From IMG/VR virus record IMGVR_UViG_3300025030_000081, positions 11,883 through 75,882 of that record: DNA of 64,000 nt; one strand, given 5' to 3'. The DNA is from a virus. This document shows, piece by piece, positions 3,001 through 59,761 of this stretch (within the stretch, counting starts at the first letter, position 1; each line of letters begins with the position of its first letter). The notes beneath the pieces were generated by a model, which worked only from the letters and a program-made list of their open reading frames with translations, searched no databases and had not been told where the DNA came from. The translations under genes were made by a program, and so were the position numbers.

Positions 3001-4150
3001 GGCTTTCGGCCAGAGGAAGTACTCGGTCAGCGAGACCTTCAGCAAGAACAAGAAGGAAAGCAACCTGTTTGAGAAGATGTTCGTAGAGGTGCTGAAACTG
3101 GCTCTGGGAGATCACAATCCCTTGAGCGAACCGCCACCAGGAGCCAAGGCGAATGACTCCGTACAGGGCCGTGCAGTGCGCCGTACGACGGCAGTCTACA
3201 ACACGCTTGCCCAAGTGACGAAGCTAGGGAAAGCCAACATCGTGGTGCGTAACCTGGGGGTCGTGTTCGGCAACCACAATAGCAACATGATGCTGCTCAA
3301 GTCGATGGGCATCCCCCTAGAGAAGATCGTCCTTTACAACAAGGAGGCGATGACCGGGATCCTGCAGTACCAGAAGGACAAGCACGAGCTCGAGTCCTGG
3401 CGCCTTGAGTTGGAGAATACCCAACGGAGACGGTCCATCACCCCGGCCGAGAAAGACATCCAGACAAGAAACATCAGCCGGCGGATCGCCGTGCTGGAAA
3501 ACCAGCTGGCCCTGAATAAGGCAACGCCTCTGGTTAAGGAAGGTGCGATGCCGTCCATCGTCGACGATTTCGATACGGATTACGTACCGCCGCCGTTCAC
3601 TTACGGGGTGGATGCGCTCCTGGACAAGAGTCTCGATCTGCTGCCGAAAGGGCTACAGAGGGCCGGTCGGACGCTGTTCATGACCACCGACACCGAGGGG
3701 TTCCGGATGATGAACAACGCGGTCAAGCTGACTGACTTCACCGGGCGGTACATCCTCTACAAGCACCTGACTGCCAAGGGTATGGATCACAACCTGGCTG
3801 TCTCAACAGTCATGGATAAGTTCATCAACTTTGACTTGCCAACTCATCGAATGATAAGTATGGTGAACGACATTGGACTAGTGATGTTTTCCAAGTACCA
3901 GCTGAGGGTGCTCAAACATATCAAGGATGTCTTGAAAGAGCACCCGTTCACGGCGCTGGCCACTTTTCTGATTGGTTCACACATAGGTGACAACAACATC
4001 ATCAATTCGATACCGTTCGTAACCAAAGATGTCATGCAGAATGTCGGCAATGCTGCATCGCTGACCGGCACAGTCTGGGATACCGCGGTGATTGACGGCG
4101 TGCAGTATGTTGGCGGCCTGGCCGCTGATGTGGTTACTCCAGGAACGTGA
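1..4150 (+). CDS. Virion RNA polymerase (N4 gp50-like), C-terminal ~1380 aa; 5' part outside window
   Basis: Frame open from window start; HELVH zincin motif followed by LDEFISFGMTN; C-terminal DFTGRYILYKHL...FINFD...IGLVMFSKY resembles N4-like vRNAP tails; N4 synteny. Confidence 0.85.
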   Translation, partial: LVSMGLASKEDRAAYVKDAQERGVPYRTAAQEYVNDVIARQGMPDANFTEKVLAQLTKNLAEIAEQTTRNKKEVMDSVRQWHQYPHHGTGYFVDNPVNTGDKIFGDIDTNTVLSHDAKARDKDIALIQGFQAEGYHSSPTGNVSTTEADYTQPSQVIDSQNVVESFDALISMDSKLAYASVQNSPSHVDYLRGVLNSIVSRVMGPVEMFMDQHKINNETQGMYTIGANGTQRIWIQTQQKSDHPLAGMLGQSIRMSPAEVYVHELVHHITHTGLKNFPHLQRQASALRELSFQEFSKAYGEHAYRVFLNDPTIDVADPANAYEVAAAKARWEYVFNTKRKADGSNAGLDEFISFGMTNENFKRELGKLQVSQEILSARKSLNTIFEKNIQQTLVNLFTAVLEFIYQRFNQQRHSTRVDQELENLVRAISYVDSKNKSVLWKFTADMEEAITAVSLQIDEKIVGMVKAAVDKTKVGSAINQLKQFPQLNNMLSHQMRIVLHWYTSQQQGLIPSIVTEMQGTTDRMRPFHDQLRMRNHVLDAAKNEATLVVRDKVNSWFKQALTPAQKTVITKALLKTDVGSLLDKGLSSQAITGYLAEDTRREARITEILNQLRNDSVLKDYAVYFENAADDLGYFMVHSARKTKDSMPLMNAHNIVSMRQSKHAGKLAGENYGRALDLVDQLATLSSLRYVPKAQRLAAAALMTSEWPAIENVLNQHNKLKDDAFRDLFHGNPVKMTKGYVEQILNSRVKFEQAHVANPDDPNDPTRKRFEDAGYYMQATPIPRDPADPVQDDIYMFRNMLGAVNDLQPGIASYSQNIGRGATGYDIQQQLGNTYDPAQEAERNNQIVLADTLNTIDNLFKVRPPAKQALGSGKNYMIPKFNDKGNIAEMRYMMSEATKDIVFEQFSEFDAVLGRMAATIIDKTVTPEINANVIEALKDVADHKDYGRKALPEVFVEISPWSPEKRYRDIYHQLPPNARTKILSIWGENRMWVAQDMVDLAFGQRKYSVSETFSKNKKESNLFEKMFVEVLKLALGDHNPLSEPPPGAKANDSVQGRAVRRTTAVYNTLAQVTKLGKANIVVRNLGVVFGNHNSNMMLLKSMGIPLEKIVLYNKEAMTGILQYQKDKHELESWRLELENTQRRRSITPAEKDIQTRNISRRIAVLENQLALNKATPLVKEGAMPSIVDDFDTDYVPPPFTYGVDALLDKSLDLLPKGLQRAGRTLFMTTDTEGFRMMNNAVKLTDFTGRYILYKHLTAKGMDHNLAVSTVMDKFINFDLPTHRMISMVNDIGLVMFSKYQLRVLKHIKDVLKEHPFTALATFLIGSHIGDNNIINSIPFVTKDVMQNVGNAASLTGTVWDTAVIDGVQYVGGLAADVVTPGT

Positions 4151-4157
4151 GGTTTAC

Positions 4158-6869
4158 ATGGCAGATAGAGTAGTCGCTTTCCAGTCAATGGTGTTCCGCC
4201 GGTCGGATCATGACATCGTAGCAGGCGATCCTGCCTTCCCGTCCGGCGGGTCGTATGAATCTCCGGTGCCGGACAACGCATACTGGCCCAGGATACCGTT
4301 ACCGGGCAACGAGCCGCTGTACGTGTCGATGAGAATATTCACCAGCGACGGCCTATTCCCCCAGGAGGAGCTCTGGAGTCCTCCGACGCTGTTCGTAAAG
4401 CACGGGGACAAGGGAGACACCGGCAATAGCGGCGATACCGGGGCAGATGGATTGCACGGATTAAACGGCATAGGCACTCCCGGGAATCCCGGAATCAACG
4501 GGGCTGACGGCGTTGCCGGCAGAGGCATCGTATGGGTCGGTGAGGCCGCGTCACATCCGATTAACCCCGAGTACGGGACGGCTTACTACAACACCACAGA
4601 CCACAAAAGCTACGTCTACTATGATCTGGCCTGGTATCAGATGACCGTAGACGGTGTCGATGGTCAGGACGGGTATCACAGCGCCATCATAACCCTTTAT
4701 CGAAAATCCGCCAGTGCTGCGGTTGAGCCGGAAAGTTTTAGTGGCACCTTCACATACGATTTTACAACAGCGCTCCTGTCCGGGGGCACCTTAAACGGCT
4801 GGACGCAAACCATGCCCGCGAGCGGTGCCGGGGAATACATCTGGGTGAAACAAGCTTCGGCTGTTGCCGATGCCCCTACGGATTCGATTGCCGCCACGGA
4901 GTTCTCCGGAGGGGTGGTCATCAGCGGGGTCGGACTTGACGGCATAAATAGCGCCACCGTGATCCTCTATCGTAAAACGGCCACCACTGCTGCGCCCGCC
5001 ATCCCCACAGGAACCTTTACCTACACGTTTTCTTTAAAAACTCTTTCCGCTGCACCCACCGGCGTGTTCAATTCCTGGTCGCAAACCGCACCGAGCCTGG
5101 TTAATGGTGAGTACCTCTGGATGGTTCAGGCAACGGCCAGTTCGAGGACCGATACCGACACGATCTCTTTCACTGAATTTTCTGTTCCGGCGGTAACATC
5201 GTCAACCGGGATCGACGGTTTATCCATCGTCTGGAAGGGTGATTTGGCAGCGCCTCCGGCGAATCCATCAATAAACTGGGTGTACCGTGATACCACCAAT
5301 GCAACCGTGTATATCTACAATGGATTTGCCTGGGAACTGATGGTTCTCGATGGTAACGATGGAACCAATGGCACCAACGGAACTAACGGAACCAACGGCA
5401 CCGATGGTGATTCAATCGATATCGTATTTGTGCGGAGCGCAGCAACACCGGCAACACCGACAGCATCTGCTGGTGTGCCTTCATCGCCTATCCAATGGTA
5501 CACCAGCGTTGCTGCTGCTAATACCGCCGGGGGTGAGGCCGTAAAGCTCTGGAGCAGCGTAGGTTACCGTCCTTTAAGTGCAGGAAATTACACCTGGGAT
5601 ACGCCGATCAGAGTCGACGGCGACAAAGTTGCCGAGATTACGGTATTCACCCGTGGCGTGCCCAGCACGACCCCGACCGGTGGCACCTACACTTTTGGTG
5701 CAGCTACCCCGATCACGACGTTGCCCACCTCAACCGGCGCAACGTGGTCTCGGACCATACCGACCGGTACTGCAGCGGTTTACACATCGCGCGCGGTGGT
5801 GTCCACAGTTGCCGGGAATACTGGCGCGGTTGCTATTACTGGTTGGTCGACCCCGGTGATAAGTTTGCAAAACGGGCTGTCAGTTTACATAACCTACCAT
5901 GACGCTTCTGCCGCCGGAACTCCCCCAGCGAAACCAACTAGCATCGCCGGGACAGACAACGGCTGGCATACGGCGGCAACAGCGGCGGCAAACTGGATGT
6001 CGCAAAAGGTGGATGACGGCACCACCGCGGCCTGGGGTGACGCCATAAAAATCGGCGGGATAGACGGTACCAACGGCACCGATGGAGCCGACGGACAAAC
6101 CGGCTCGAGTGTCCTGGTGGTTTATGTTGACGCGATCGACCCGGCAACTCCCGGCACCAGCGTCGGTGTTCCCGTCGGCTGGTCGGCTGCGATACCGGCC
6201 AGTGCCACCTATGCCATCTGGGAAACCACCGGGACGAGAGCCACCGGAGGAGCAACCTACACCTGGACAACCCCGGTCGTATCTACAGCCGGCTGGAGAA
6301 AACCAGGGACAACGTTCTTCGACGGCAACAAGATATTCACAGGGGACGCCTATGTGGACACCTTGCAGATCAAGGGGCAAGCCGTCACATTCTCTGTTGC
6401 TACTACGGATTGGGCTGGTTCTACTACGTCTGCTGTGAATATCCAGCCCACAGGTTCCGTGATAACTAAGGATATCTGCTCGACACCGATGAGTTTTACA
6501 GGCCCACTAAGCGGCGTAAATACGCCCGTAATAGTGATGTGCAGAACAACTTTTACACTCTCCGGTTACTGCCCTGACGGGAGTGTTTACACTCGGGGTT
6601 ATATCAAGGTCGAGCTGTTGCGGGACACGACTGTACTGCACACTGCGGTAAACGAACAGTGGACTTTCGATGGATCATCGATTGCAACTACGGTATCACT
6701 GAAGGATGAAATAAGTTTTGAATACCTCGACACTTCTGCCCCTGCGGGGAACCACACATACAAATTGAAAATCACATTTACTACAAATGTGACTTCCTTC
6801 AACAACACATTGACTGGCACGTTGTCTAATTCCAAATCGTCTATATTTGCTCTGGAGACGAAACGATGA
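4158..6869 (+). CDS. Tail fibre / receptor-binding protein with collagen-like G-X-Y linkers and repeated beta-rich modules
   Basis: ATG 4158 after GAGG; GDKGDTG and (GTN)n repeats; Thr/Gly/Trp-rich modules; IFTGDAYVDTLQIKGQAVT motif typical of tail proteins. Confidence 0.75.
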   Translation: MADRVVAFQSMVFRRSDHDIVAGDPAFPSGGSYESPVPDNAYWPRIPLPGNEPLYVSMRIFTSDGLFPQEELWSPPTLFVKHGDKGDTGNSGDTGADGLHGLNGIGTPGNPGINGADGVAGRGIVWVGEAASHPINPEYGTAYYNTTDHKSYVYYDLAWYQMTVDGVDGQDGYHSAIITLYRKSASAAVEPESFSGTFTYDFTTALLSGGTLNGWTQTMPASGAGEYIWVKQASAVADAPTDSIAATEFSGGVVISGVGLDGINSATVILYRKTATTAAPAIPTGTFTYTFSLKTLSAAPTGVFNSWSQTAPSLVNGEYLWMVQATASSRTDTDTISFTEFSVPAVTSSTGIDGLSIVWKGDLAAPPANPSINWVYRDTTNATVYIYNGFAWELMVLDGNDGTNGTNGTNGTNGTDGDSIDIVFVRSAATPATPTASAGVPSSPIQWYTSVAAANTAGGEAVKLWSSVGYRPLSAGNYTWDTPIRVDGDKVAEITVFTRGVPSTTPTGGTYTFGAATPITTLPTSTGATWSRTIPTGTAAVYTSRAVVSTVAGNTGAVAITGWSTPVISLQNGLSVYITYHDASAAGTPPAKPTSIAGTDNGWHTAATAAANWMSQKVDDGTTAAWGDAIKIGGIDGTNGTDGADGQTGSSVLVVYVDAIDPATPGTSVGVPVGWSAAIPASATYAIWETTGTRATGGATYTWTTPVVSTAGWRKPGTTFFDGNKIFTGDAYVDTLQIKGQAVTFSVATTDWAGSTTSAVNIQPTGSVITKDICSTPMSFTGPLSGVNTPVIVMCRTTFTLSGYCPDGSVYTRGYIKVELLRDTTVLHTAVNEQWTFDGSSIATTVSLKDEISFEYLDTSAPAGNHTYKLKITFTTNVTSFNNTLTGTLSNSKSSIFALETKR
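5361..5405 (+). repeat. 9-bp tandem repeat encoding (GTN)4-GTD collagen-like linker
   Basis: ggaaccaat ggcaccaac ggaactaac ggaaccaac ggcaccgat. Confidence 0.9.
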
Positions 6870-42120: not shown

Positions 42121-42147
42121 AACTAAACCCTACCCCGAAGGGTAGGG
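42121..42147 (-). terminator. UUCG-tetraloop terminator after the first early gene
   Basis: CCCUACCC-UUCG-GGGUAGGG-UUUAGUU on the minus strand. Confidence 0.8.
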
Positions 42148-42348: not shown

Positions 42349-42517
42349 GGTGGTGCCTCCTGATCAGGGAAGATGGAGATGCCCTATTGCACTCCGCCCA
42401 TGTGAGGAGGGTTTGGCCTTTGACTTTGAGAGGAGGCTGGAACTTTGGAGGGCAAAGTTTATTGACTCCCGGGGGGTGGTTTGAGGTGTTGACCTTGGGC
42501 CATACAGTACAACGTCA

Positions 42518-42658
42518 GTACCTAGATTATGTAAATTTGCCCAGGTTTCGTTATCCTCTTCTAACACAACACCTGTACCCAGATTATATAATTTTCCTAT
42601 AGTTTCATTATCTTAGCCTAATGCTTACGTACCTAGATTACGCAAAAAAAAAAAAAAA
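42518..42658. repeat. Degenerate ~55-bp tandem repeat (GTACCYAGATTA at 42518, 42575, 42629) followed by A15
   Basis: Units 1 and 2 align along their length (gtttcgttatc/gtttcattatc, ctaa); located at the strand-divergence point. Confidence 0.8.
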
Positions 42659-42701
42659 TGGTGAGGTTTGATTAGAAATTATTTTACTTTCCTGTAATTT
42701 A

Positions 42702-42733
42702 GTTCTTGTATATTTTCCTACAGGAAGTATACT
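42702..42733 (+). promoter_or_regulatory. Sigma70-like promoter overlapped by a palindromic operator-like site
   Basis: TTGTAT-16-TATACT; GTTCTTGT-N10-ACAGGAAG. Confidence 0.6.
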
Positions 42734-42741
42734 CCCACTCC

Positions 42742-42936
42742 ATGATCATCAACAACTATTTTGAAATAGCTGACTCATGCATAGAAAAGCTGACTCCACG
42801 TGATAAGGCTGAATACTTTCTGCTCGGCGCCGTCTTCAGTACCGTGGGATCTGAGGGTATCCAGTACGACATAATGACTTATGAAGGCACCACACGTATC
42901 CTGGCTGTGCGCAGCACCGGTCTATTAAAATGGTAG
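42742..42936 (+). CDS. Small protein, DKAEYFLLGA family copy 1 (possibly leaderless)
   Basis: ATG 8 nt after the -10 box, no SD; motif shared with next ORF. Confidence 0.6.
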   Translation: MIINNYFEIADSCIEKLTPRDKAEYFLLGAVFSTVGSEGIQYDIMTYEGTTRILAVRSTGLLKW

Positions 42937-43178
42937 TCATAACAACCCCTACCAATCTATATTCAGCCGCCGAAAGCTATGTTAACGATTACGCCCTGGT
43001 GCAGCAGCTATTGTTGAAGCACGGTGCCACAACTCTGGTCAGGGCGCCACTCACGGCGGAGGATAAGGCCGAGTATTTCCTGCTGGGTGCCACCTTTACA
43101 ACCGAAGTGATCCACGACCAGGAAAGGCAGCTCATGCTGTACAAGGACAGGCTTTACCTGCTGGAGCCTGAATACTGA
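42930..43178 (+). CDS. Small protein, DKAEYFLLGA family copy 2
   Basis: LT..DKAEYFLLGA.F.T motif. Confidence 0.65.
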   Translation: MVVITTPTNLYSAAESYVNDYALVQQLLLKHGATTLVRAPLTAEDKAEYFLLGATFTTEVIHDQERQLMLYKDRLYLLEPEY

Positions 43179-43241
43179 TCTTTCTTCGGACATCTATCTG
43201 GGAATCTCTCGGGTCTCCCTAACTACCAGTAGGAGAATCTT

Positions 43242-43424
43242 ATGGAACGAATTGAAGATACCGGAATTATTGTCGCAGCCAGGTTAGCGTATGCAACACC
43301 ATCAGAGTACAGACTCCGGCGTGGGTCTGATGGTGAGGTGGTACTGCAAGGCGCCTACCGGTGGGAGCAAGGATCGAGTGGCGGTTTTGAATGGCGGGAC
43401 ATCCCCACTATTGAAGAGGAATAA
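43242..43424 (+). CDS. Small hypothetical protein
   Basis: AGGAG RBS; LQ...W......EWRDIP motif common in phage micro-proteins. Confidence 0.7.
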   Translation: MERIEDTGIIVAARLAYATPSEYRLRRGSDGEVVLQGAYRWEQGSSGGFEWRDIPTIEEE

Positions 43425-43700
43425 GGTGGACGGAGAGAAGCGTGGCCGGGGCGGACGAGCGGAGCGAGGATCGCCGGAAGGCCAAAGCTTCTCGACTGGT
43501 AGGTAGACAAATAAAGGAGAACATATTGGAATTGATATCTGCATCGTCTGGGCTGGCTGCGTTAGGTTTGTCTGTTGGTTTCTTTATGATTGGCTACCTT
43601 CTCGGAAGATGCCATGCATAACAAATCCAGCGTGCTTAGATTATATATATGGCGTTCAGTGGTCTGTTTTCCTCAATGGTTTCGCTGGGTTAGTATTTCA

Positions 43701-43801
43701 CTTCTTGTAATTATTTTACAGGAAGTCTTTCTTCTTGTGCATAGACTACAGGAAGTGTATTGTGCGTGGCAAGAAGTCATTGTAGCTAAAGGTACAGGAA
43801 A
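43701..43801 (+). promoter_or_regulatory. Three tandem palindromic operator-like sites overlapping a sigma70-like promoter
   Basis: CTTCTTGT-N9-ACAGGAAG at 43701 and 43731; GTCATTGT-N10-ACAGGAAA at 43776; TTGTGC-17-TATTGT at 43735-43763. Confidence 0.7.
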
Positions 43802-43905
43802 TTGTGGAAGCTACCGATGACCAATGACTAGTGGGTGGTGCAGGTGAAGCAGCAGTTCTGGTAGTCTCCGTGGCGGCGGCGCAGGACAACAAGGGGGATA
43901 AAACA

Positions 43906-44166
43906 ATGGGACCAGCTCGTGAGAGAAGGCAGCAGGTGGCACTGACCGAAAACCGGTATCGAAGGAAGAGCGACATGATCGAAGCCGTGGCGAAACTGAA
44001 GACGTACTCCATGGGCGAGCAGGCGCTGATCATCGCCAAGGCCGGGGAGCTGATGGGAGGGAACAAGAGAATGGAGGCATCGGCGGCGATCTTCCGAGCG
44101 ATCGAGAGTTGGACAGAGAGGCGCCAGAAAGTGCAGGGGGAGGGCGGTCATGGGCAGGCTGCTTAG
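43906..44166 (+). CDS. Small basic helical protein (candidate regulator)
   Basis: AAGGGGG RBS; first gene after the operator cluster. Confidence 0.6.
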   Translation: MGPARERRQQVALTENRYRRKSDMIEAVAKLKTYSMGEQALIIAKAGELMGGNKRMEASAAIFRAIESWTERRQKVQGEGGHGQAA

Positions 44167-44410
44167 AGAGGTGATGGCCGAGGGCTACCGCAACCCACCA
44201 CCGGAGCTGATTCCCGAGCTCCTGTTACTGGGTGAGCTGGAGCATGTTCAGCTTTCCCTGGATAACGGCCAGGTTATCGAGATGGACATGATCAGGTACA
44301 AGGGGATGGATTACGCCATGAAGGTCATCGACGGCGGGGTCTGGTATGGGACCAGGACCGAGCTGTTGGGCAAGGGGTTTCAACAACCGATAAGGGAGGA
44401 GATGGAATGA
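44150..44410 (+). CDS. Small protein, distant member of the DKAEYFLLGA family
   Basis: PELLLLG...MDMIRYKG aligns loosely with EYFLLG...YDIMTYEG. Confidence 0.55.
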   Translation: MGRLLREVMAEGYRNPPPELIPELLLLGELEHVQLSLDNGQVIEMDMIRYKGMDYAMKVIDGGVWYGTRTELLGKGFQQPIREEME

Positions 44411-44907
44411 AGAAATATGTGGGCGTGAAGTTGGTACTGGCAGAATTGATGAATCTCGGTGAGTACAACACACTTAGAGGCCAAGAGTTGCCGGCCGAGC
44501 AGGATCCGGCGACTGAGGGTTACCTGGTTGAGTATCTGGATATGGAAACAGCCCACCATCCGGAGTTCGCTCCTGGTTACATATCCTGGTGCCCGAAGGC
44601 CCAGTTCGAGAGAGCCAACCGTGCGATTGACGGTATGACCTTCGGCCATGCAATCGAGCTGGCGAAGACAGGACACAGGATCGCCCGGGCCGGCTGGAAC
44701 GGGAAGGGGATGTTCGTGGTTTATCTTCCTGGTTACCTGGAAGGGATCCTGGCCAACGAGGTCACCCAGCAGGCGTTCGGGTATGTCGGCCCGGAACTGC
44801 ATAAGGTGCGGCCGTATCTGGTCATGCGCTGTGCCGACGGCACGCACCAGATGTGGCTCGCTTCGCAGAGCGACATTCTCGAGGAGGATTGGGTAGTGGT
44901 GCAGTAG
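44407..44907 (+). CDS. DUF2829 / Tad2-like cyclic-nucleotide sponge with extra N-terminal domain
   Basis: MTFGHAIE..K.G.RIARAGWNGKGMF...W.ASQSDILEEDW signature; N-terminal KYVGVK..A..M...GYLVEY...YISW.PK..FE. Confidence 0.8.
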   Translation: MKKYVGVKLVLAELMNLGEYNTLRGQELPAEQDPATEGYLVEYLDMETAHHPEFAPGYISWCPKAQFERANRAIDGMTFGHAIELAKTGHRIARAGWNGKGMFVVYLPGYLEGILANEVTQQAFGYVGPELHKVRPYLVMRCADGTHQMWLASQSDILEEDWVVVQ

Positions 44908-44916
44908 GCAAAAGAA

Positions 44917-44945
44917 AAGGGCTGGATGGCGGCCAGCCCTTCTCC
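44917..44945. terminator. Terminator-like hairpin after the Tad2-like gene
   Basis: AAGGGCTGG-N7-CCAGCCCTT. Confidence 0.6.
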
Positions 44946-44998
44946 ACTTCGGAGGATACCACAAGCAAGGAGGGAACTTGTGATGGGGCTGTTATATT

Positions 44999-45475
44999 AT
45001 GAATAACTTGATAAATCAAGATGTAATTAACATTGACTTAAAAAATAACGAGATACTCATAAGGAAGCGCAGCCACAGATCGATCCGCGCACCGTTCTCA
45101 GTAGTGAGTATGCTAACCAACAAGAAACAGAGAAGGCGGGTGATTCAAATGGATGTCTTTGATTTACTGGATAAAGTTAGCAAGGGCGCCTTCAGCGTGT
45201 TCAACAATTTGAAGTACAACCGGTCTGAGGAAGACAACGTCACCCAGTATGTCGGCGACGAGATGAACAAGACAGAGAGGGAGAGCCTGAGCAGGCGTCT
45301 GAAGGAGCTGAAGGATGTGGGTTTGATCAGGCGGGTTAAAAAAGAGTTGAAAAGTGGTGGCGGAAAAGTTTATACATTCAAAGACCCGCGGAACACATTC
45401 ATCATCAACCCGGAGATGATCCGCTGTCAGGACCACGACGAGGCGGAACACCTATGGAACCAGTGCACCAAATAA
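44999..45475 (+). CDS. Winged-helix DNA-binding protein (RepL-like)
   Basis: SLSRRLKELKDVGLIRRV...FIINP pattern. Confidence 0.6.
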   Translation: MNNLINQDVINIDLKNNEILIRKRSHRSIRAPFSVVSMLTNKKQRRRVIQMDVFDLLDKVSKGAFSVFNNLKYNRSEEDNVTQYVGDEMNKTERESLSRRLKELKDVGLIRRVKKELKSGGGKVYTFKDPRNTFIINPEMIRCQDHDEAEHLWNQCTK

Positions 45476-45487
45476 GCGAGGCTATTA

Positions 45488-45724
45488 ATGGCAATTACCG
45501 ATCTTCGTGAAGTGAGGTGTGGCAAGGATCCCGCGGCCATCCTTGAGACTCTCGACCACATCAGGGAGCAGATACTCTCCGGTGAGGTTATCGGCATCAT
45601 GGCGGTTCTCGACCATCCGGACGGAAAGTACACGACTGTCGGTTCAGGAAGTCCCGATTCCCGACAGACGGTAGGCGGGCTGTTCGAGCTTGCCATCCGA
45701 CGTGCGGGGTTCGAGTACAGATGA
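45488..45724 (+). CDS. Hypothetical protein
   Basis: GAGG RBS. Confidence 0.55.
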   Translation: MAITDLREVRCGKDPAAILETLDHIREQILSGEVIGIMAVLDHPDGKYTTVGSGSPDSRQTVGGLFELAIRRAGFEYR

Positions 45725-45745
45725 GCAACCTAAAGGACAGACTCA

Positions 45746-46447
45746 ATGAAAGCAGCGCATAACACGCCGATCACGATCGAGGAGTTCAAGGAAGCCCTGC
45801 CGGCGCACATACGCAAGACGGTCAACCAGGACGTGCTCGACACCATCAACGCGGGCATGTCGGATCCCGAAGTGCTGGCCGTCTACCGTGAGAACGTGAT
45901 AGGCCTGACGACCGTGCTGCAGGAAGGGCGCTTCAAGATGAGCGACTACCTGAGCGCGGTGAAGTTCGTCAGCCACAAGCTCTTGGGGGACAACAACATC
46001 GTCGCCTGGTCCAAGACCTTCCCCGACCGGTACAACGCCATGCGTCAGAGGGGCAATTCCTCCAGCGAGATAGCTTCCGTCTGTTCCCGTTACGGCACCA
46101 GCAAGCTGGTGATACTGTTACTGGGTCAGACGATGATGCCGACGCACATCCTCAATGCCCCACTGTACCAGAAGGCGATCAATGTGCAGGCCGATCTGAT
46201 GATGAACGCCAAGAGCGAGAAGGTAAGATCCGACGCCGCGGCAAATCTTTTGTTGACATTGAAACCGCCTGAGGTTAAGAAGGTGGAGTTGTCGATCGGA
46301 CTGCAGGAAGATTCAGCCATTACTCAACTACGAGAGTCCACGATGGCACTAGTCAACCAGCAGCGTCAAATGATCGAACAGGGGGCATTGTCAGTGCGAT
46401 CTATTGCCGAGAGTAAACTGATTACCATCGATGTGACGGATGCCTAA
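45746..46447 (+). CDS. Putative terminase small subunit (N4 gp69-like)
   Basis: Y.SAVKFVSHKL.G, TFPDRY, AKSEKVRSDAA motifs; directly upstream of TerL. Confidence 0.8.
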   Translation: MKAAHNTPITIEEFKEALPAHIRKTVNQDVLDTINAGMSDPEVLAVYRENVIGLTTVLQEGRFKMSDYLSAVKFVSHKLLGDNNIVAWSKTFPDRYNAMRQRGNSSSEIASVCSRYGTSKLVILLLGQTMMPTHILNAPLYQKAINVQADLMMNAKSEKVRSDAAANLLLTLKPPEVKKVELSIGLQEDSAITQLRESTMALVNQQRQMIEQGALSVRSIAESKLITIDVTDA

Positions 46448-49067
46448 GCCTGTACTGGAAGGCACCACCTACCCCAAGAAGACAGTGATTGAGTGGTTGA
46501 ACTCGGTTGATTACGGTAACGACCTCTTCTACGTTCCTGATGCATTCGCCCTCGAATTCCTAAACTTCATCAAGATGGTCAACGGTGATGCCGGGGAGGA
46601 ACACACCTCTCCGGTTACCCACCTGCGCATGCTGGACAATGTCCATGGACCTGACCAGAAGATCCTGAACATGTGCAGTCGCGGTTTGGCGAAGACTACC
46701 CTGATGGGTGAATACCTGTTCCTCTACATCGCCGTCTATGGCGAGATCCCCGGTTTCGGCAAGGTGAACCTGGCGCTGTATGTCTCGGACAGCATCGAGA
46801 ACGGCGTCAAGAATATGAGGAAGAACCTGGAGTTCCGCTGGGAGAACAGCGCCTTCCTGCAGAAGTACGTGCCCACGACGCGCTTCACCGATATCCGCTG
46901 GGAGTTCGTCAACGCCGACGGCCGGGTGTTCGTGGTGAAGGGGTACGGAGCCAAGGCACTGGCTCTGGACAGCAAACTGTTTACGATTAATGGCCTAACC
47001 ACGATTGGGGAGTGTCGGGTGGGGGATCAGATTTTTGGAGCAGACGGAAAGCTCACGACTATCACCGCCAAGAGTGAAATGTTTCACAAGCCAATGTACC
47101 AGTTGAGTCTTGCTGATGGGCGTTCGATCCGGGCGTCAGAAGATCATCTAAACCCAGTCGTAATCAATACTAACCCAAACAACACTGTGCGCTGGGAAGA
47201 GAAAGTACTGACTACTTTGGAGCTGATGGAACAGCCACTACTCCATACCAAAAAGGGAAATCTGAAACATCGAGGCACCTCTAGCAAGAGCTTGGTATTC
47301 GTAAAAAACATTGAACCGCTACAGTACCCAGAGGCTAACCTTACTATTGACCCGTACACCTTGGGTGTTGTGATTGGGGATGGCCGGATTCGCAAGGATT
47401 GTGGGTCAGTGGAATTGACCGTGAGCTCTGACGAATTGGCCCACTACCATGCTCAAGTGCCCTACGAGTTCGGAAAAATTTACGTGGATCCAAGATCCAG
47501 TGCAGTCACTCAGAGTATCCGGGGATTGGGCAAGCGGCTTATGGTAATGAAGCTCAACGTACGTGGGGAGCAAAAATTCATCCCTCCCGAGTACTTCTTA
47601 GGTTCTATCGAACAGCGCCTAGCCTTGCTGCAGGGGCTGATGGACACGGATGGCACCGTCTTAGAGAACGGACGAATGAGTTTTACCAGTTCGTCGCGCC
47701 AATTGGTGAATGACCTGGCTTGCCTGGTACGTTCCTTGGGTGGCACTGCTGGTCCTATCTGCAAGCACTCTAGCGCGGAGGCATACCGGGTTGAGAGTTG
47801 GATGCAACTTAACCCATTTCGCCTAGCCCGAAAGGCTGCCCGATTTGTGGCAAAAATTAAGCATGTGGCTGTGGTGTCAATCGATCGAATTGCTGATGAA
47901 CCCAGCCAGTGTATCGCGGTGAATAATGACGAGCATCAGTTTGTCACCGAATGCTATTTTCGTACTCACAATACCGGAGTCCGCGGTGCCAAGGAAATGG
48001 GTGTCCGGCCGCAGCTTGCGGTCCTGGACGACCTGATCTCCGATGAGGATGCCCGGTCGGAGACCGTCATCAAGTCGATCGAGAACACCGTCAACAAGGC
48101 GGTCAACTTCGCTCTGCACCCCACCCACTCGAAGATCCTCTGGTCGGGCACACCCTTCAACGCGCGGGATCCCTTGTACAAGGCGGTGGAGTCCGGTGCC
48201 TGGAAGGTCAACGTCTTTCCGGTCTGCAACCAGTTCCCCTGTTCGCCGGCCGACTTCCGCGGCGCCTGGGAGAGTCGCTTCCCTTATAGCTACGTGAAGC
48301 AGCAGTACGACTTCGCGCTGGCACAGGGGAAGATCGCCGACTTCAACCAGGAGCTGATGCTTAGGATCATGAGTGAGGAGGACCGGCTGATCCTGGACGG
48401 GGACATCCTCTGGTACAACCGCTCCAACCTGCTCGCCAACAAATCCAAATTCAACTACTACATCACCACCGACTTCGCCACCAGCGAGAAGCAATCGGCT
48501 GACTACTCGGTCATCGCGGTATGGGCACTGAACAGCAAAGGTTTTTGGTTCCTGGTGGACGGGATCTGCAAGCGGCAGACGATGGACAAGAACATAGAGT
48601 CCCTGTTCATGTTCGCCCAGATCTACAGCCCGCAGCAGGTGGGCATCGAGATAAGCGGCCAGCAGGGCGGCTTCATCCCCTGGATCCAATCGCAGATGCT
48701 GGATCGGAACTGCTACTTCACGATGGCCAGCGACGGCAACAGCAACGCCCCGGGGATCAATCCCAATACAAACAAGATGGTGCGGTTTAACATAGTCGTG
48801 CCCTGGTTTAAGTCACACATAATGTTCTTCCCGAATGAGCTGAAGGACACTCCGTTCATCCAGGAGTACCTCGCTGAACTTCAGCTGGTTTCTCCTGCCG
48901 GATTCAAATCCAAAAATGATGATTGTCTTGACACAATCTCCATGCTATCTTCCCTCAAAGTTTGGCGACCGTCTGAAGCGGCGGAAATGATCCGGCGTAA
49001 AGACGATATGTGGGACATTGAGCAAGAAAGTATTGACGACTGCGCATTAAGCTCGTATGTTGTGTGA
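46440..49067 (+). CDS. terL: Terminase large subunit (N4 gp68-like) containing an intein; 536-aa extein
   Basis: RGLAKTT, LAVLDDL, GTPF, TTDFATS, DDCLDTISML; KGYGAK|TGVRG restored on intein removal. Confidence 0.93.
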   Translation: MPKPVLEGTTYPKKTVIEWLNSVDYGNDLFYVPDAFALEFLNFIKMVNGDAGEEHTSPVTHLRMLDNVHGPDQKILNMCSRGLAKTTLMGEYLFLYIAVYGEIPGFGKVNLALYVSDSIENGVKNMRKNLEFRWENSAFLQKYVPTTRFTDIRWEFVNADGRVFVVKGYGAKALALDSKLFTINGLTTIGECRVGDQIFGADGKLTTITAKSEMFHKPMYQLSLADGRSIRASEDHLNPVVINTNPNNTVRWEEKVLTTLELMEQPLLHTKKGNLKHRGTSSKSLVFVKNIEPLQYPEANLTIDPYTLGVVIGDGRIRKDCGSVELTVSSDELAHYHAQVPYEFGKIYVDPRSSAVTQSIRGLGKRLMVMKLNVRGEQKFIPPEYFLGSIEQRLALLQGLMDTDGTVLENGRMSFTSSSRQLVNDLACLVRSLGGTAGPICKHSSAEAYRVESWMQLNPFRLARKAARFVAKIKHVAVVSIDRIADEPSQCIAVNNDEHQFVTECYFRTHNTGVRGAKEMGVRPQLAVLDDLISDEDARSETVIKSIENTVNKAVNFALHPTHSKILWSGTPFNARDPLYKAVESGAWKVNVFPVCNQFPCSPADFRGAWESRFPYSYVKQQYDFALAQGKIADFNQELMLRIMSEEDRLILDGDILWYNRSNLLANKSKFNYYITTDFATSEKQSADYSVIAVWALNSKGFWFLVDGICKRQTMDKNIESLFMFAQIYSPQQVGIEISGQQGGFIPWIQSQMLDRNCYFTMASDGNSNAPGINPNTNKMVRFNIVVPWFKSHIMFFPNELKDTPFIQEYLAELQLVSPAGFKSKNDDCLDTISMLSSLKVWRPSEAAEMIRRKDDMWDIEQESIDDCALSSYVV
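46956..47972 (+). mobile_element. 339-aa intein with LAGLIDADG endonuclease; Ala1 start, class-3 type
   Basis: ALALDSKL start, ASEDHL block B, LGVVIGDG and LQGLMDTDG, QCIAV block F, THN|T end; lower GC. Confidence 0.92.
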
Positions 49068-57472: not shown

Positions 57473-59761
57473 ATGGGTCTATTCAGTAGCAAGAAAGTCA
57501 TATCTGTTTCTGCTGTAACCCTGCCTCTTGTGGAAGCCCCTAAGAAGCCGTATGTCGTGACCGTGGCAGGCGCCGTTTACCGCAGAGAAGACGTGACATC
57601 AGCTATCCTGAATATGATCCACAGCAATCCTGCTGCCCGTATCCCTGGTGTTCACGCCTACGCCAGGGATCACTATACGCTGGGCCTGCCTCAGGGCAAA
57701 GCGCTGAACTACAGCAACATCAACCTCGATCGGATCGACGAGGTCCTGCTGAGCGCGTTAGGTGGCAGTCCCCCGCTAAAGGCAGTGGGCGCCGCTTACA
57801 TGACCATCTCACCCACCATCGCAGCCTACCCGCACCTATATAATGTCCGTCAATACGACCGCATGACTAACCTGATCGCGGTGCCTCCGGTCGACCTGGT
57901 TTGGGTGCAACCACCGGAACCCGGCAGTATCGATGTCGCCTCCGCCAATAAGGAGATCCGCCTGAAATCGGTGGCGGTCGCCTTAGACGGCGTGAGCCTG
58001 GATATCACGTACGGCCTGTTTCTGGAACAGCCCGTGATCAACTATGATGATTTCAGCTATGGGGGCGTAATATCCATGCAGTATGTGGAGGAGCCCTATA
58101 GCTATATCGAGAATATCTCGTTACCCGAGGCACCCACGATAACCTGGGGCGAGGAGTACCTGGTAGCTTTCTACAATGAGCTGGCCGGGGACGGCGTCAC
58201 CCCGATCAGTGGCGACAAACCCTGGCTGTACCGGGTGAGTTCAAATGTGTATCCGGACCTCCGTTCAACGGAGGTGCCGACAGCTCTGGACTATTTTCCC
58301 GTCATACCGCTGCGCTACAATAATAAAGACCTGATGGGTACCGCTTATGAAAGTACCCCACTCTATACAACCAGCCGGGAATTGGCCAGAAGAATGAATC
58401 TTGACTTGGATGCGCTCTCCGGGAAACTAAACTCGAACGAGAGTATAGCCGACATAGACCATGCCTATGTCATGTATGGCATCAACGTAAGAACAGAAGT
58501 CCCCGCCAGTCTAAAGTACCTGCACAAATTTTTTGAGCAGTTGTATGAAACACAGTACACCGATCAACTGGAATACCTGAGCAAGGTCGGTACGCCCCTC
58601 TACGGACTGTCCGCCGTGAATTCCTTATTGGCCGGCACTGAGACAGGCACCTTTGAAGAGAACGGTTTAAGCGTTTTCCTCGACTATGACTATATAACCT
58701 CCACCACAGGTTTCGGCGTAATTGGCAACAACAGAACTGGCAATATTGAGAAAGAGCTAGTTGAGTACACAGAGAATGTTTCGCAAGGATTGTATCAGGC
58801 TGTTATCCCACAAGTGAAAGGCGCGATGTTATTGAAGCTCCAGGTGGCTCCGAACGTGGTGCACACGATAGGGGTTTATGGTTTAGAGCACCGGAACCTT
58901 ATCTATAAAGGTAAGTCCGAGTACACTTCGATGCTCGATGTCATGCGCAATCCAGATGAAAACAATCTGGTGATCCCACTCCAGTTTCAACTGGTCCAGG
59001 CGCTGACTTTGCAATTGCGCACGGAACTGTATTCGGATGCCATGCTGATGATCATCAATGCGTACCAGGTGACCAAGCTGAAATGGTACCAGAGCTCCTG
59101 GTTTAAAGTCATCTTGGTCATCGTCGCCGTCATCCTGATCGTCATATCATTCATATACGGCCAGGCATGGGTAGCTGCGCTCGTTGCAAAAGGTTATGCA
59201 GCCATCACGGCCGTGACTATAGTACTTGCCCATATTGTAGGGATCTCCATGATTGTATCGGCAGCCGCCAAGTACCTGGTGAACCAGTTCGGAGCGAAGT
59301 GGGGAGTCATCGGTACGGTCATCCTGATGGTGGTGGCTGCCGTACTGTCTCAGGGTAGGAGTCTGTTGGGATCTTTAGAGGCGTTCGCCCTGGTTACTGC
59401 CCAGACCTGCTTACAGATGTCTGCTGCGCTCATCGGGGCCACCAACGAATTCCTGATAAAGGCCGGTCAGGAGATCGTCAATGACTATGTCGATTTTCAA
59501 GCCGATCTATCGGAACGGTACGAAGAATTAAAGACTGCGGAAGACCTACTAAACAATAGTAATGATGTGAACCCTCTGCTATATATAAAGCCGGCCAGGT
59601 TCAAGATCGTGCCGAATGAGTCGCCCGATAGATTTTACAGCAGATGTCTGGAATTGCCCGCCTACACGATGTTCACGATTCATGGCCAGGTGGCCAATTA
59701 CTGTACACAGCTTTTGAAACTGCCTGAGCTGCCCGCTATCAATACATATCTGGAAACATAG
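57473..59761 (+). CDS. N4 gp53-like virion protein with C-terminal hydrophobic segments
   Basis: MGLFSSKK.I.VS start, FPVIPLR, IDHAY..G, KWYQ..WF then TM helices, ESP..F..R. Confidence 0.82.
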   Translation: MGLFSSKKVISVSAVTLPLVEAPKKPYVVTVAGAVYRREDVTSAILNMIHSNPAARIPGVHAYARDHYTLGLPQGKALNYSNINLDRIDEVLLSALGGSPPLKAVGAAYMTISPTIAAYPHLYNVRQYDRMTNLIAVPPVDLVWVQPPEPGSIDVASANKEIRLKSVAVALDGVSLDITYGLFLEQPVINYDDFSYGGVISMQYVEEPYSYIENISLPEAPTITWGEEYLVAFYNELAGDGVTPISGDKPWLYRVSSNVYPDLRSTEVPTALDYFPVIPLRYNNKDLMGTAYESTPLYTTSRELARRMNLDLDALSGKLNSNESIADIDHAYVMYGINVRTEVPASLKYLHKFFEQLYETQYTDQLEYLSKVGTPLYGLSAVNSLLAGTETGTFEENGLSVFLDYDYITSTTGFGVIGNNRTGNIEKELVEYTENVSQGLYQAVIPQVKGAMLLKLQVAPNVVHTIGVYGLEHRNLIYKGKSEYTSMLDVMRNPDENNLVIPLQFQLVQALTLQLRTELYSDAMLMIINAYQVTKLKWYQSSWFKVILVIVAVILIVISFIYGQAWVAALVAKGYAAITAVTIVLAHIVGISMIVSAAAKYLVNQFGAKWGVIGTVILMVVAAVLSQGRSLLGSLEAFALVTAQTCLQMSAALIGATNEFLIKAGQEIVNDYVDFQADLSERYEELKTAEDLLNNSNDVNPLLYIKPARFKIVPNESPDRFYSRCLELPAYTMFTIHGQVANYCTQLLKLPELPAINTYLET

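Follow-up and report, generated by a model that had tools for sequence, protein, structure and literature searches.

Phages of the N4 type are the textbook example of gene expression timed by three RNA polymerases, and the regulators that figure in accounts of this timing are, to our knowledge, polymerase cofactors only (gp1, gp2, Drc and N4SSB). Another style of control is familiar from the immI region of phage P22, where the Mnt and Arc repressors act at Pant and a small antisense RNA, sar, is also at work. The present analysis concerns a module in an uncultured phage that, judged by its genes, is N4-like (Schitoviridae): four imperfect palindromes and, downstream of them, the gene for a protein here called p8 (44999-45475). 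The window analysed is a stretch of 64,000 nucleotides, bases 11883-75882 of the 75,882-bp IMG/VR record IMGVR_UViG_3300025030_000081, whose source is a groundwater metagenome; positions are those of the window. The reading that we hold to be on balance the probable one is that the palindromes are p8 operators on host sigma70-type promoters, and that they serve an accessory, moron-like cassette that regulates itself, is specific to one clade and lies at the right end of an N4-like genome. Within this cassette p8 would be an autoregulator, probably a repressor.

The setting is recognizable from PHROG matches to the virion RNA polymerase, both subunits of the N4-type RNAPII, DNA polymerase, primase, portal and major capsid protein. 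Early and middle genes form a block on the minus strand, from 42348 down to about 7400, and the late block begins on the plus strand at 42742 with small open reading frames (ORFs), followed by a gene for a protein like the small terminase subunit (TerS) at 45746, an intein-bearing gene for the large subunit (TerL), and the portal and capsid genes. The module of palindromes and p8 occupies the divergent gap together with the initial 3 kb of the late block. According to excerpts of two papers (PMC4496689, PMC9163698), it is host sigma70 RNA polymerase that transcribes the late strand in N4 and LUZ7, with N4SSB as the activator in N4 late transcription. A host-type promoter is therefore to be expected here, and the late-strand genes of this phage do lie behind weak sigma70-like promoters. 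Those same excerpts, however, make no mention of a palindromic operator or of a dedicated winged-helix regulator, and tblastn searches with p8, over 50,697 GenBank phage records and over 72,556 plasmids, gave no match; the absence of p8 from the phage records fits an accessory rather than a core N4 function. When the region was compared by blastn with the GenBank phages, the sole match was 100 bp of TerS in a Xanthomonas N4-like phage.

A sequence-only reading had described four imperfect palindromes in this region, had noticed no copy elsewhere, and had placed two of them over the -35 hexamer and spacer of sigma70-like promoters; all three observations hold, down to the promoter hexamers and their spacing. 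The pattern TTGT-N9/10-ACAGGAA has four matches, all on the plus strand, at 42706, 43705, 43735 and 43780, where 0.05 would be expected, and none of 100 shuffles reached four. There is no further match in the whole 75,882-bp record, and a looser pattern adds only one, at 58541, which is probably due to chance. Read out in full, the site is CTTCTTGTA-N7/8-TACAGGAAG. The elements on which the argument turns are the following, the promoters being recognized from their sequence.

42702-42727, no strand assigned: candidate operator O1, a palindrome of the CTTCTTGTA-N8-TACAGGAAG type, gTTCTTGTAtattttccTACAGGAAG
43701-43725, no strand assigned: candidate operator O2, CTTCTTGTAattatttTACAGGAAG, upstream of P2 and flagged as a weak terminator-like hairpin
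43731-43755, no strand assigned: candidate operator O3, CTTCTTGTGcatagacTACAGGAAG, over the -35 hexamer and spacer of P2
43776-43801, no strand assigned: candidate operator O4, GTCATTGTAgctaaaggTACAGGAAA, at about +6 to +31 of P2
42706-42733, plus strand: promoter-like P1, TTGTAT (42706-42711), 16 nt, TATACT (42728-42733)
43735-43763, plus strand: promoter-like P2, TTGTGC (43735-43740), 17 nt, TATTGT (43758-43763)
44999-45475, plus strand: p8, a 158-aa winged-helix protein (by its fold model) and, from its co-occurrence with the sites, the candidate operator-binding autoregulator

An extra left half-site, TTCCTGTA, lies beside O1 at 42689-42696. LexA, TyrR and LysR-type boxes were considered as the identity of the palindromes and set aside, their spacing being different.

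Related loci were fetched through the TerS-like protein and through p8, which gave 11 that encode p8 (106 kb) and 19 N4-like loci that lack it (214 kb). The palindromes proved to be conserved: CTTGTA-N7-TACAAG sites occupy the same place in nine of the 11 p8 loci (L102, L103, L105, L106, L129, L130, L131, L132 and L134). Pooling 28 sites from 10 loci yields the consensus CTTCTTGTA-N7-TACAAGAAG, with a spacer of 7 in 23 of them and an almost invariant TTGT/ACA core. Conserved sequence at a fixed spacing points to recognition by a protein rather than to bare pairing. Moreover, mismatches between the arms are balanced over the 28 sites (15 T.G and 14 C.A), so that neither strand is favoured as a hairpin and recognition of duplex DNA is favoured instead. 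A strict form of the pattern is matched 22 times in the 106 kb of p8-encoding loci, 19 of these inside the module, as against no match in the 214 kb from p8-lacking loci. An exact-motif scan of IMG/VR with CTTCTTGT-N9/10-ACAGGAAG returned 96 scattered single matches and was of no value.

The arrangement of the sites is conserved as well. They lie between the divergent point and the Tad2/p8/TerS genes, with p8 downstream on the same strand, the sole exception being a site at 566 in L129, beyond the divergent gene. In L106 and L129 the sites are the last element before p8, and in L132 a variant copy stands there. The three-site cluster is spaced at 32 + 45 bp in L106, compared with 30 + 45 bp here. 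Base composition at this place varies, from the visibly AT-rich DNA of L102 to 46-58% GC in this window, and sites kept across such a range have probably been kept in different hosts.

The palindromes are also tied to promoter-like sequence. A -10-like TAnnnT begins 4-6 nt past the right arm in nine of the 28 sites, against 7.4% expected (P ~1e-4), and the hexamers found in this position include TATACT (twice), TATAAT, TATAGT and TATTGT. In most loci, then, one site per cluster would supply the -35 hexamer and spacer of a sigma70-type promoter. Dyad sites lie over the predicted core promoter of the p8-encoding operon here (O3 on P2) and likewise in L106, L105, L103 and L102; L106 has the same three-site layout as this window, with a TATAGT -10 after the middle site. 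At P1 the first ATG (42742) follows the -10 hexamer by only 9 nt and has no Shine-Dalgarno sequence, so that the messenger would be nearly leaderless, and the layout in L102 matches this (TTGTAA-17-TAGCTT, ending 7 nt before the ATG).

Two proteins had been put forward earlier as candidates for binding the palindromes. One of them, the product of 43906-44166, has dropped out: it has one homologue among 5.8 billion proteins and is missing from relatives that retain the sites. The other is p8, whose gene co-occurs with the sites across relatives and whose binding to them is predicted. It has 73 close homologues, all metagenomic, and a profile search extends the family to 172 clusters at 50% identity. 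In an AlphaFold2 model (mean predicted local distance difference test score 72.5), residues 1-41, including a conserved basic arm, score below 50, and residues ~48-143 are modelled as a helix-strand-helix-wing domain. This domain aligns with winged helices at Z 5-6 in VIA-align, where less than 8 falls short of what is advised as clear. HTH_Crp_2 gives a weak match, under its cut-off, in 35 of 50 family members (best 1.6e-5), and in a profile search against PDB sequences the recognition helix of MarR/SlyA aligns at p8 residues 88-112 (4mnu, E 0.29). Foldseek against the PDB found nothing at E <= 0.001, a profile search of PDB sequences with the remote p8 set gave no useful match, and no Pfam model reaches threshold on p8. 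All told, the sequence signals are faint though they agree with one another, and with the model they make p8 a probable winged helix, from an uncharacterised family.

Like regulators of the MarR, ArsR and Crp types, p8 thus has a predicted winged-helix fold (residues 48-143) and an alignment over recognition helix and wing, and the palindromic site would suit a dimer. Unlike them, it has the conserved basic arm (EVxVRKK..RxPFSAI..TN) at its N-terminus and an INPxxIRC..H...W motif in its C-terminal part. The sequence-only reading had called p8 a RepL-like winged helix-turn-helix protein, and only the winged helix survives: the Pfam RepL model (PF05732) has no match in the six-frame translated genome at E <= 10, nor is RepL among the Pfam families matched by 50 close or 70 remote family members, and what is left of the likeness comes from ESM Atlas (see below).

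Two observations on remote members of the family may be added. In L140, an AT-rich viral contig of 66-131 kb, the gene for a remote p8 relative (P0087, 4001-4447) is preceded by a 425-bp gap that holds an inverted repeat of its own, with 25-nt arms, at 3848-3903 (..ATCAAGTATATAT../..ATATATACTTGAT..); this fits the idea that p8 family proteins bind palindromes upstream of their own genes. A few other remote members are longer and have HNH endonuclease domains (PF13392, 5e-13), and in these the p8-type domain appears to be the DNA-binding module of homing-type nucleases.

The short leader in front of p8 holds a second set of potential control elements.

44910-44939, minus strand: intrinsic terminator, stem GGGCTGG/CCAGCCC at 44919-44939, T-tail at 44918-44910
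44910-44984, minus strand: predicted ~75-nt antisense RNA to the p8 leader, with a 5' stem-loop, whose loop UUCCCUCCU is anti-Shine-Dalgarno, and then the terminator
44991-45019, minus strand: putative antisense promoter, -35 TTGATT (45019-45014), 17 nt, -10 TATAAC (44996-44991)
44983-45006, plus strand: 7-codon upstream ORF (MGLLYYE-stop) with a good Shine-Dalgarno, AGGAGG at 44968-44973, overlapping the p8 ATG

A GC hairpin following a plus-strand A-tract is found upstream of p8 in 11 of 13 loci, and read on the minus strand it is an intrinsic terminator in which covariation is seen at 10 of 11 pairs. Scored strictly, the minus-strand terminator is present in 9 of 13 loci with p8, compared with 2 of 16 loci without it. 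The predicted RNA folds at -31 kcal/mol (z -4.45), and six other loci show the same design with different stems. A -35-like/-10-like antisense pair is present in nine of ten aligned loci, with a spacer of 17 nt in eight and 16 in L132; seven of the -10 hexamers start with TATA, L132 has TACCTT and L104 TATCGT, and several are without the final T. The start codon of p8 itself lies inside the spacer of the putative antisense promoter. On the other strand, the overlap of the 7-codon ORF with the p8 ATG suggests translational coupling, and comparable short upstream ORFs exist in L130 and L131.

This leader, with its small winged-helix gene under a short, terminator-ended antisense transcript (predicted), resembles the control of plasmid Rep genes, for which RepL (PF05732) and the countertranscript ctRNA_p42d (RF00489) provide points of reference. 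Unlike in those systems, the RepL hidden Markov model (HMM) has no match, the ctRNA_p42d match stays below threshold (44908-44943, minus strand; 31.9 bits against a gathering score of 50) and aligns with the terminator hairpin and tail only, and no origin or partition functions were found.

Small ORFans and a Tad2-like sponge make up the cargo of the cassette, which is specific to the clade.

42742-43178, plus strand: two paralogous small ORFs, 42742-42936 and 42930-43178, with a common KAEYFLLGA motif
43242-43621, plus strand: small ORFans 43242-43424 (60 aa) and 43526-43621 (31 aa, hydrophobic), without homologues in relatives
43906-44410, plus strand: 43906-44166, a basic ORFan product, and 44150-44410, a small conserved protein with a PELLLLGELE motif
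44407-44907, plus strand: Tad2-like (DUF2829) protein with an extra N-terminal domain (PF11195, phrog_872)
45488-46447, plus strand: downstream end of the unit, formed by a 78-aa ORFan at 45488-45724 and, at 45746-46447, the small terminase-like gene (phrog_2109, 1.3e-84)

Both the paralogous small-protein family and the Tad2-like sponge had been called from the letters alone, and both calls are borne out. The products of 42742-42936 and 42930-43178 align at 50% over 32 aa (E 2e-8) and have homologues in L102 and L103, with no Pfam or PHROG match; p2 and 44150-44410, compared as possible further paralogues, gave no alignment. Homologues of 44150-44410 occur in L102-L105. The product of 44407-44907 passes the gathering score of PF11195 with 88.5 bits, the cut-off being 25 (E 4.2e-25; residues 77-165), matches phrog_872 at 4e-49, and has a counterpart in 12 of 12 p8-encoding loci.

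Two further features of this gene set were seen in passing. TerL (46440-49067) is 875 aa long here versus 530 aa in L102, the extra ~345 aa being an intein-type insertion. A GC-rich GAGCG(A/G/C)AGCGA element at 43455-43474, in the doubtful GTG-started part of ORF 43442-43621, is conserved in several relatives (L102 ~5915-5935, L103 ~4572-4592, L106 ~2515-2535, L136 ~2385-2400), where it precedes the second operator cluster by ~200-250 bp.

Taken as a circuit, the module might work as follows. Host RNA polymerase would fire P1 and P2. P1, overlapped by O1, would head the first operon of small genes (42742-43621), and P2, overlapped by O3 and flanked by O2 and O4, would head a second operon of ORFans, the Tad2-like sponge and p8, with probable read-through into the terminase genes. 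A p8 dimer on O1-O4 would then shut or throttle both promoters by occluding the -35 hexamer and spacer. Since the P2 operon includes the gene for p8, the protein would restrain production of itself as well as of the cargo, a case of negative autoregulation. The antisense RNA across the leader would be a second brake on p8, and coupling to the upstream ORF would trim output further, so that p8 synthesis would be held low.

Such a circuit has clear parallels with P22 immI. In both, short palindromic operators, putative here, lie on a host-type promoter and the regulator is encoded in the unit under its control; in both, the leader of a downstream gene is covered by a small antisense RNA, predicted in our case, that has a promoter and a terminator to itself, and the unit is accessory and stands outside the main developmental switch. 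The components differ: the P22 repressors are ribbon-helix-helix proteins whereas p8 is predicted to be a winged helix of an unnamed family, the cargo here consists of ORFans and a Tad2-like sponge rather than an antirepressor, and the bearer is an N4-like virulent phage with three RNA polymerases.

The sequence-only reading had proposed either a regulated switch or a maintenance module of the carrier-state or plasmid-like kind. Operator-like sites over host-type promoters uphold the regulated part. The maintenance part is left without its usual components, because models for integrase, resolvase, ParA and ParB (PF00589, PF00239, PF13614, PF02195) have no match in the 75.9-kb genome at E <= 0.01, with positive controls; a RepL HMM match and a plasmid match are likewise wanting. 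Clade-specificity and an anti-defence type of cargo adjoining the terminase genes fit an accessory, self-regulated unit better than maintenance, and the unit looks like neither a lysogeny nor a partition system. A literature search on repressors, operators and carrier states in Schitoviridae found nothing relevant.

Several observations weigh against taking the palindromes for p8 operators on host promoters. The right arm reads TACAGG rather than TACAAG in all four local sites, an asymmetry for which this reading does not account. The -35 hexamers of P1 and P2 are weak, with only three of six consensus matches each, and a consensus promoter scan lists neither promoter and shows no promoter enrichment in the region. 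The fold match of p8 is generic, with ORC/Cdc6, TFIIE, ArsR, RepA-WH1 and MarR tied, and the nearest named clusters in ESM Atlas carry RepL (PF05732), at a score of 0.94, 185 of 256 features and TM 0.52 over 107 aa, a comparison that comes without alignment or E-value. The sequence is compatible with activation by p8 as well as with repression. L104 and L136 encode p8 and have degenerate sites only; the p8 proteins of these two have a divergent recognition helix and wing in common, which fits altered specificity and equally fits plain phylogeny. Indeed, the co-occurrence of p8 with the sites is confounded by shared descent since it is confined to one clade. Finally, a sequencing-run search found the region only in contigs of the source groundwater sample, and there was no RNA run among the holders of its DNA.

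Other explanations have to be set against this one. The palindromes could belong to replication control, with p8 a RepL-type initiator that binds them, the adjacent AT-rich and repeat DNA an origin, and autorepression plus a countertranscript RNA limiting p8 for episomal or extra replication. We regard this as unlikely. The RepL clusters of ESM Atlas point that way, as do the presence of RepA-pPS10 WH1 among the tied fold matches (Z 5.4), the Rep-like antisense RNA and terminator over the p8 leader with their sub-threshold ctRNA_p42d match, and the A15 run, AT-rich DNA and three ~55-bp repeats that adjoin O1. Yet RepL is found in none of 120 family members scanned and has no HMM match in the genome at E <= 10, and p8 is not matched in the plasmid collection; the sites stand on promoters before operons and form no iteron array, the ~55-bp repeat is single in relatives, most N4-like phages lack p8 and replicate by their own polymerase and primase, and the genome has no partition genes or recombinase. 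The antisense layer and the RepL look-alike keep this reading alive as a minority rival. A bolder version, in which a captured plasmid-style replication-control cassette with p8 as rate-limiting RepL-type initiator lets the clade persist or over-replicate as an episome in a carrier state, although the phage family is considered strictly virulent, seems very improbable. A true lysis or latency switch giving a carrier or pseudolysogenic state is the least probable of the explanations considered: immunity regions, P22 immI among them, are built in this way, with multi-operator control and an antisense RNA (a probable one here), but the operators here touch only the right-end accessory operons, phage polymerases serve the opposite strand with its early and middle genes, the motif occurs nowhere else in the genome, and integrase, resolvase, ParA and ParB are lacking.

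Binding by a factor other than p8 is quite unlikely. On this account a host regulator recognizes the palindromes, or they are simply shared promoter architecture with TTGTAA as the -35, and p8 acts otherwise; the left arm does provide a -35-like TTGTAx, and the link to p8 is co-occurrence within a single clade. The right arm TACAAGAAG, however, is no sigma70 element and is conserved as well as the left, many sites lack a following -10, or are found past the promoter or over a ribosome-binding site, and the persistence of the sites from the AT-rich L102 to DNA of 46-58% GC speaks for different hosts. It is distinctly improbable that the palindromes act as strand-specific hairpins, whether as promoters for a phage RNA polymerase (of the N4 vRNAP or LUZ7 RNAPII type), as terminators or as elements of RNA processing or stability. 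O2 does fold well as RNA (-12.4 kcal/mol, z -6.5 against shuffles), consistent with its terminator-like flag, and a T.G mismatch in all four local sites preserves pairing in the plus strand, but O3 and O4 do no better than shuffles (z -1.6 and -0.7), a T-rich tail is present at O2 only, and over the 28 sites it is the sequence itself that is conserved, with mismatches that show no strand bias. Loops of 5-8 nt on AT-rich stems of 8-11 bp also differ from the 3-nt loops of the N4 and LUZ7 hairpin promoters, as given in an excerpt of PMC9163698, from which the criterion applied here was drawn: a short stem, looped by 3-4 nt, ahead of the start site. A role in packaging, in which p8 on the palindromes marks the right genome end for terminase, is highly improbable. 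It would account for the position of p8 directly upstream of the TerS-like gene in all loci, and for sites within ~1.5 kb of the genome-end junction as placed by N4 gene order; against this, the position of the sites follows -10 hexamers and the starts of genes, they form two clusters separated by 1 kb of genes, N4-like phages without p8 package with the same TerS family, and one Logan contig from the source groundwater sample bridges the region without a break.

The DNA between the early genes and O1 has features of its own that appear to lie outside the operator system.

42518-42658, plus strand: ~55-bp repeats in three degenerate copies, core GTACCYAGATTA, followed by A15 (context only)

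Tandem repeats had been reported here, and they are real but degenerate: the GTACCYAGATTA core is found at 42518, 42575, 42629 and, as a fourth copy, 43632-43649. Tandem Repeats Finder returns the A15 run only. In relatives the ~55-bp repeat is a single copy, conserved in L102 and L104. The core (motif A) was tried as a genome-wide promoter and rejected, its sole other look-alike lying inside a coding region. The fourth copy (TTAGATTATATATATGG) has a counterpart in relatives (L102 ~5955, L103 ~4612, L106 ~2605, L136 ~2483), a TATATATA-rich element that lines up with it and precedes the operator cluster by ~70-90 bp; this element may be an additional promoter feeding through the operators.

Across the divergent gap, at 42466-42535, a block of the form CCCGGGGGG(T)GG..TTT..TTGA..ATACAGTAC..GTACCYAGATT is conserved in relatives of very different GC content (L102 5237-5300, L103 3802-3860, L104 3118-3182, L106 2280-2345, L136 2063-2125). 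Its CCC-GGG-GGG segment could form a hairpin with a 3-nt loop on the template strand for the minus-strand early genes, with a 6-bp stem in L106, and the block is a candidate for the first early (vRNAP) promoter or for a terminus signal. After the first early gene, a UUCG-loop terminator hairpin (CCCTACCCTTCGGGGTAGGG) at 42128-42147 on the minus strand keeps its form in L102, L103, L104 and L106. A second contig from the same groundwater sample (run X1, record 2; 12.8 kb, at about half the depth) matches 42129-42146, in this early-gene terminator, and 46770-46846, in TerL, only ~1.5 kb apart, which points to a co-occurring relative whose right-end cassette is much shorter.

If p8 does govern these palindromes, control of the N4 type would gain a classical repressor layer made of conserved operators, a DNA-binding protein dedicated to them and, probably, an antisense RNA. 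That layer would act specifically on accessory and anti-defence genes that the host polymerase drives in an uncultured clade. The unnamed p8 family, with its ~170 clusters, would gain a testable DNA target, and the promoters, operators and regulator would make a compact set for study in a surrogate host.

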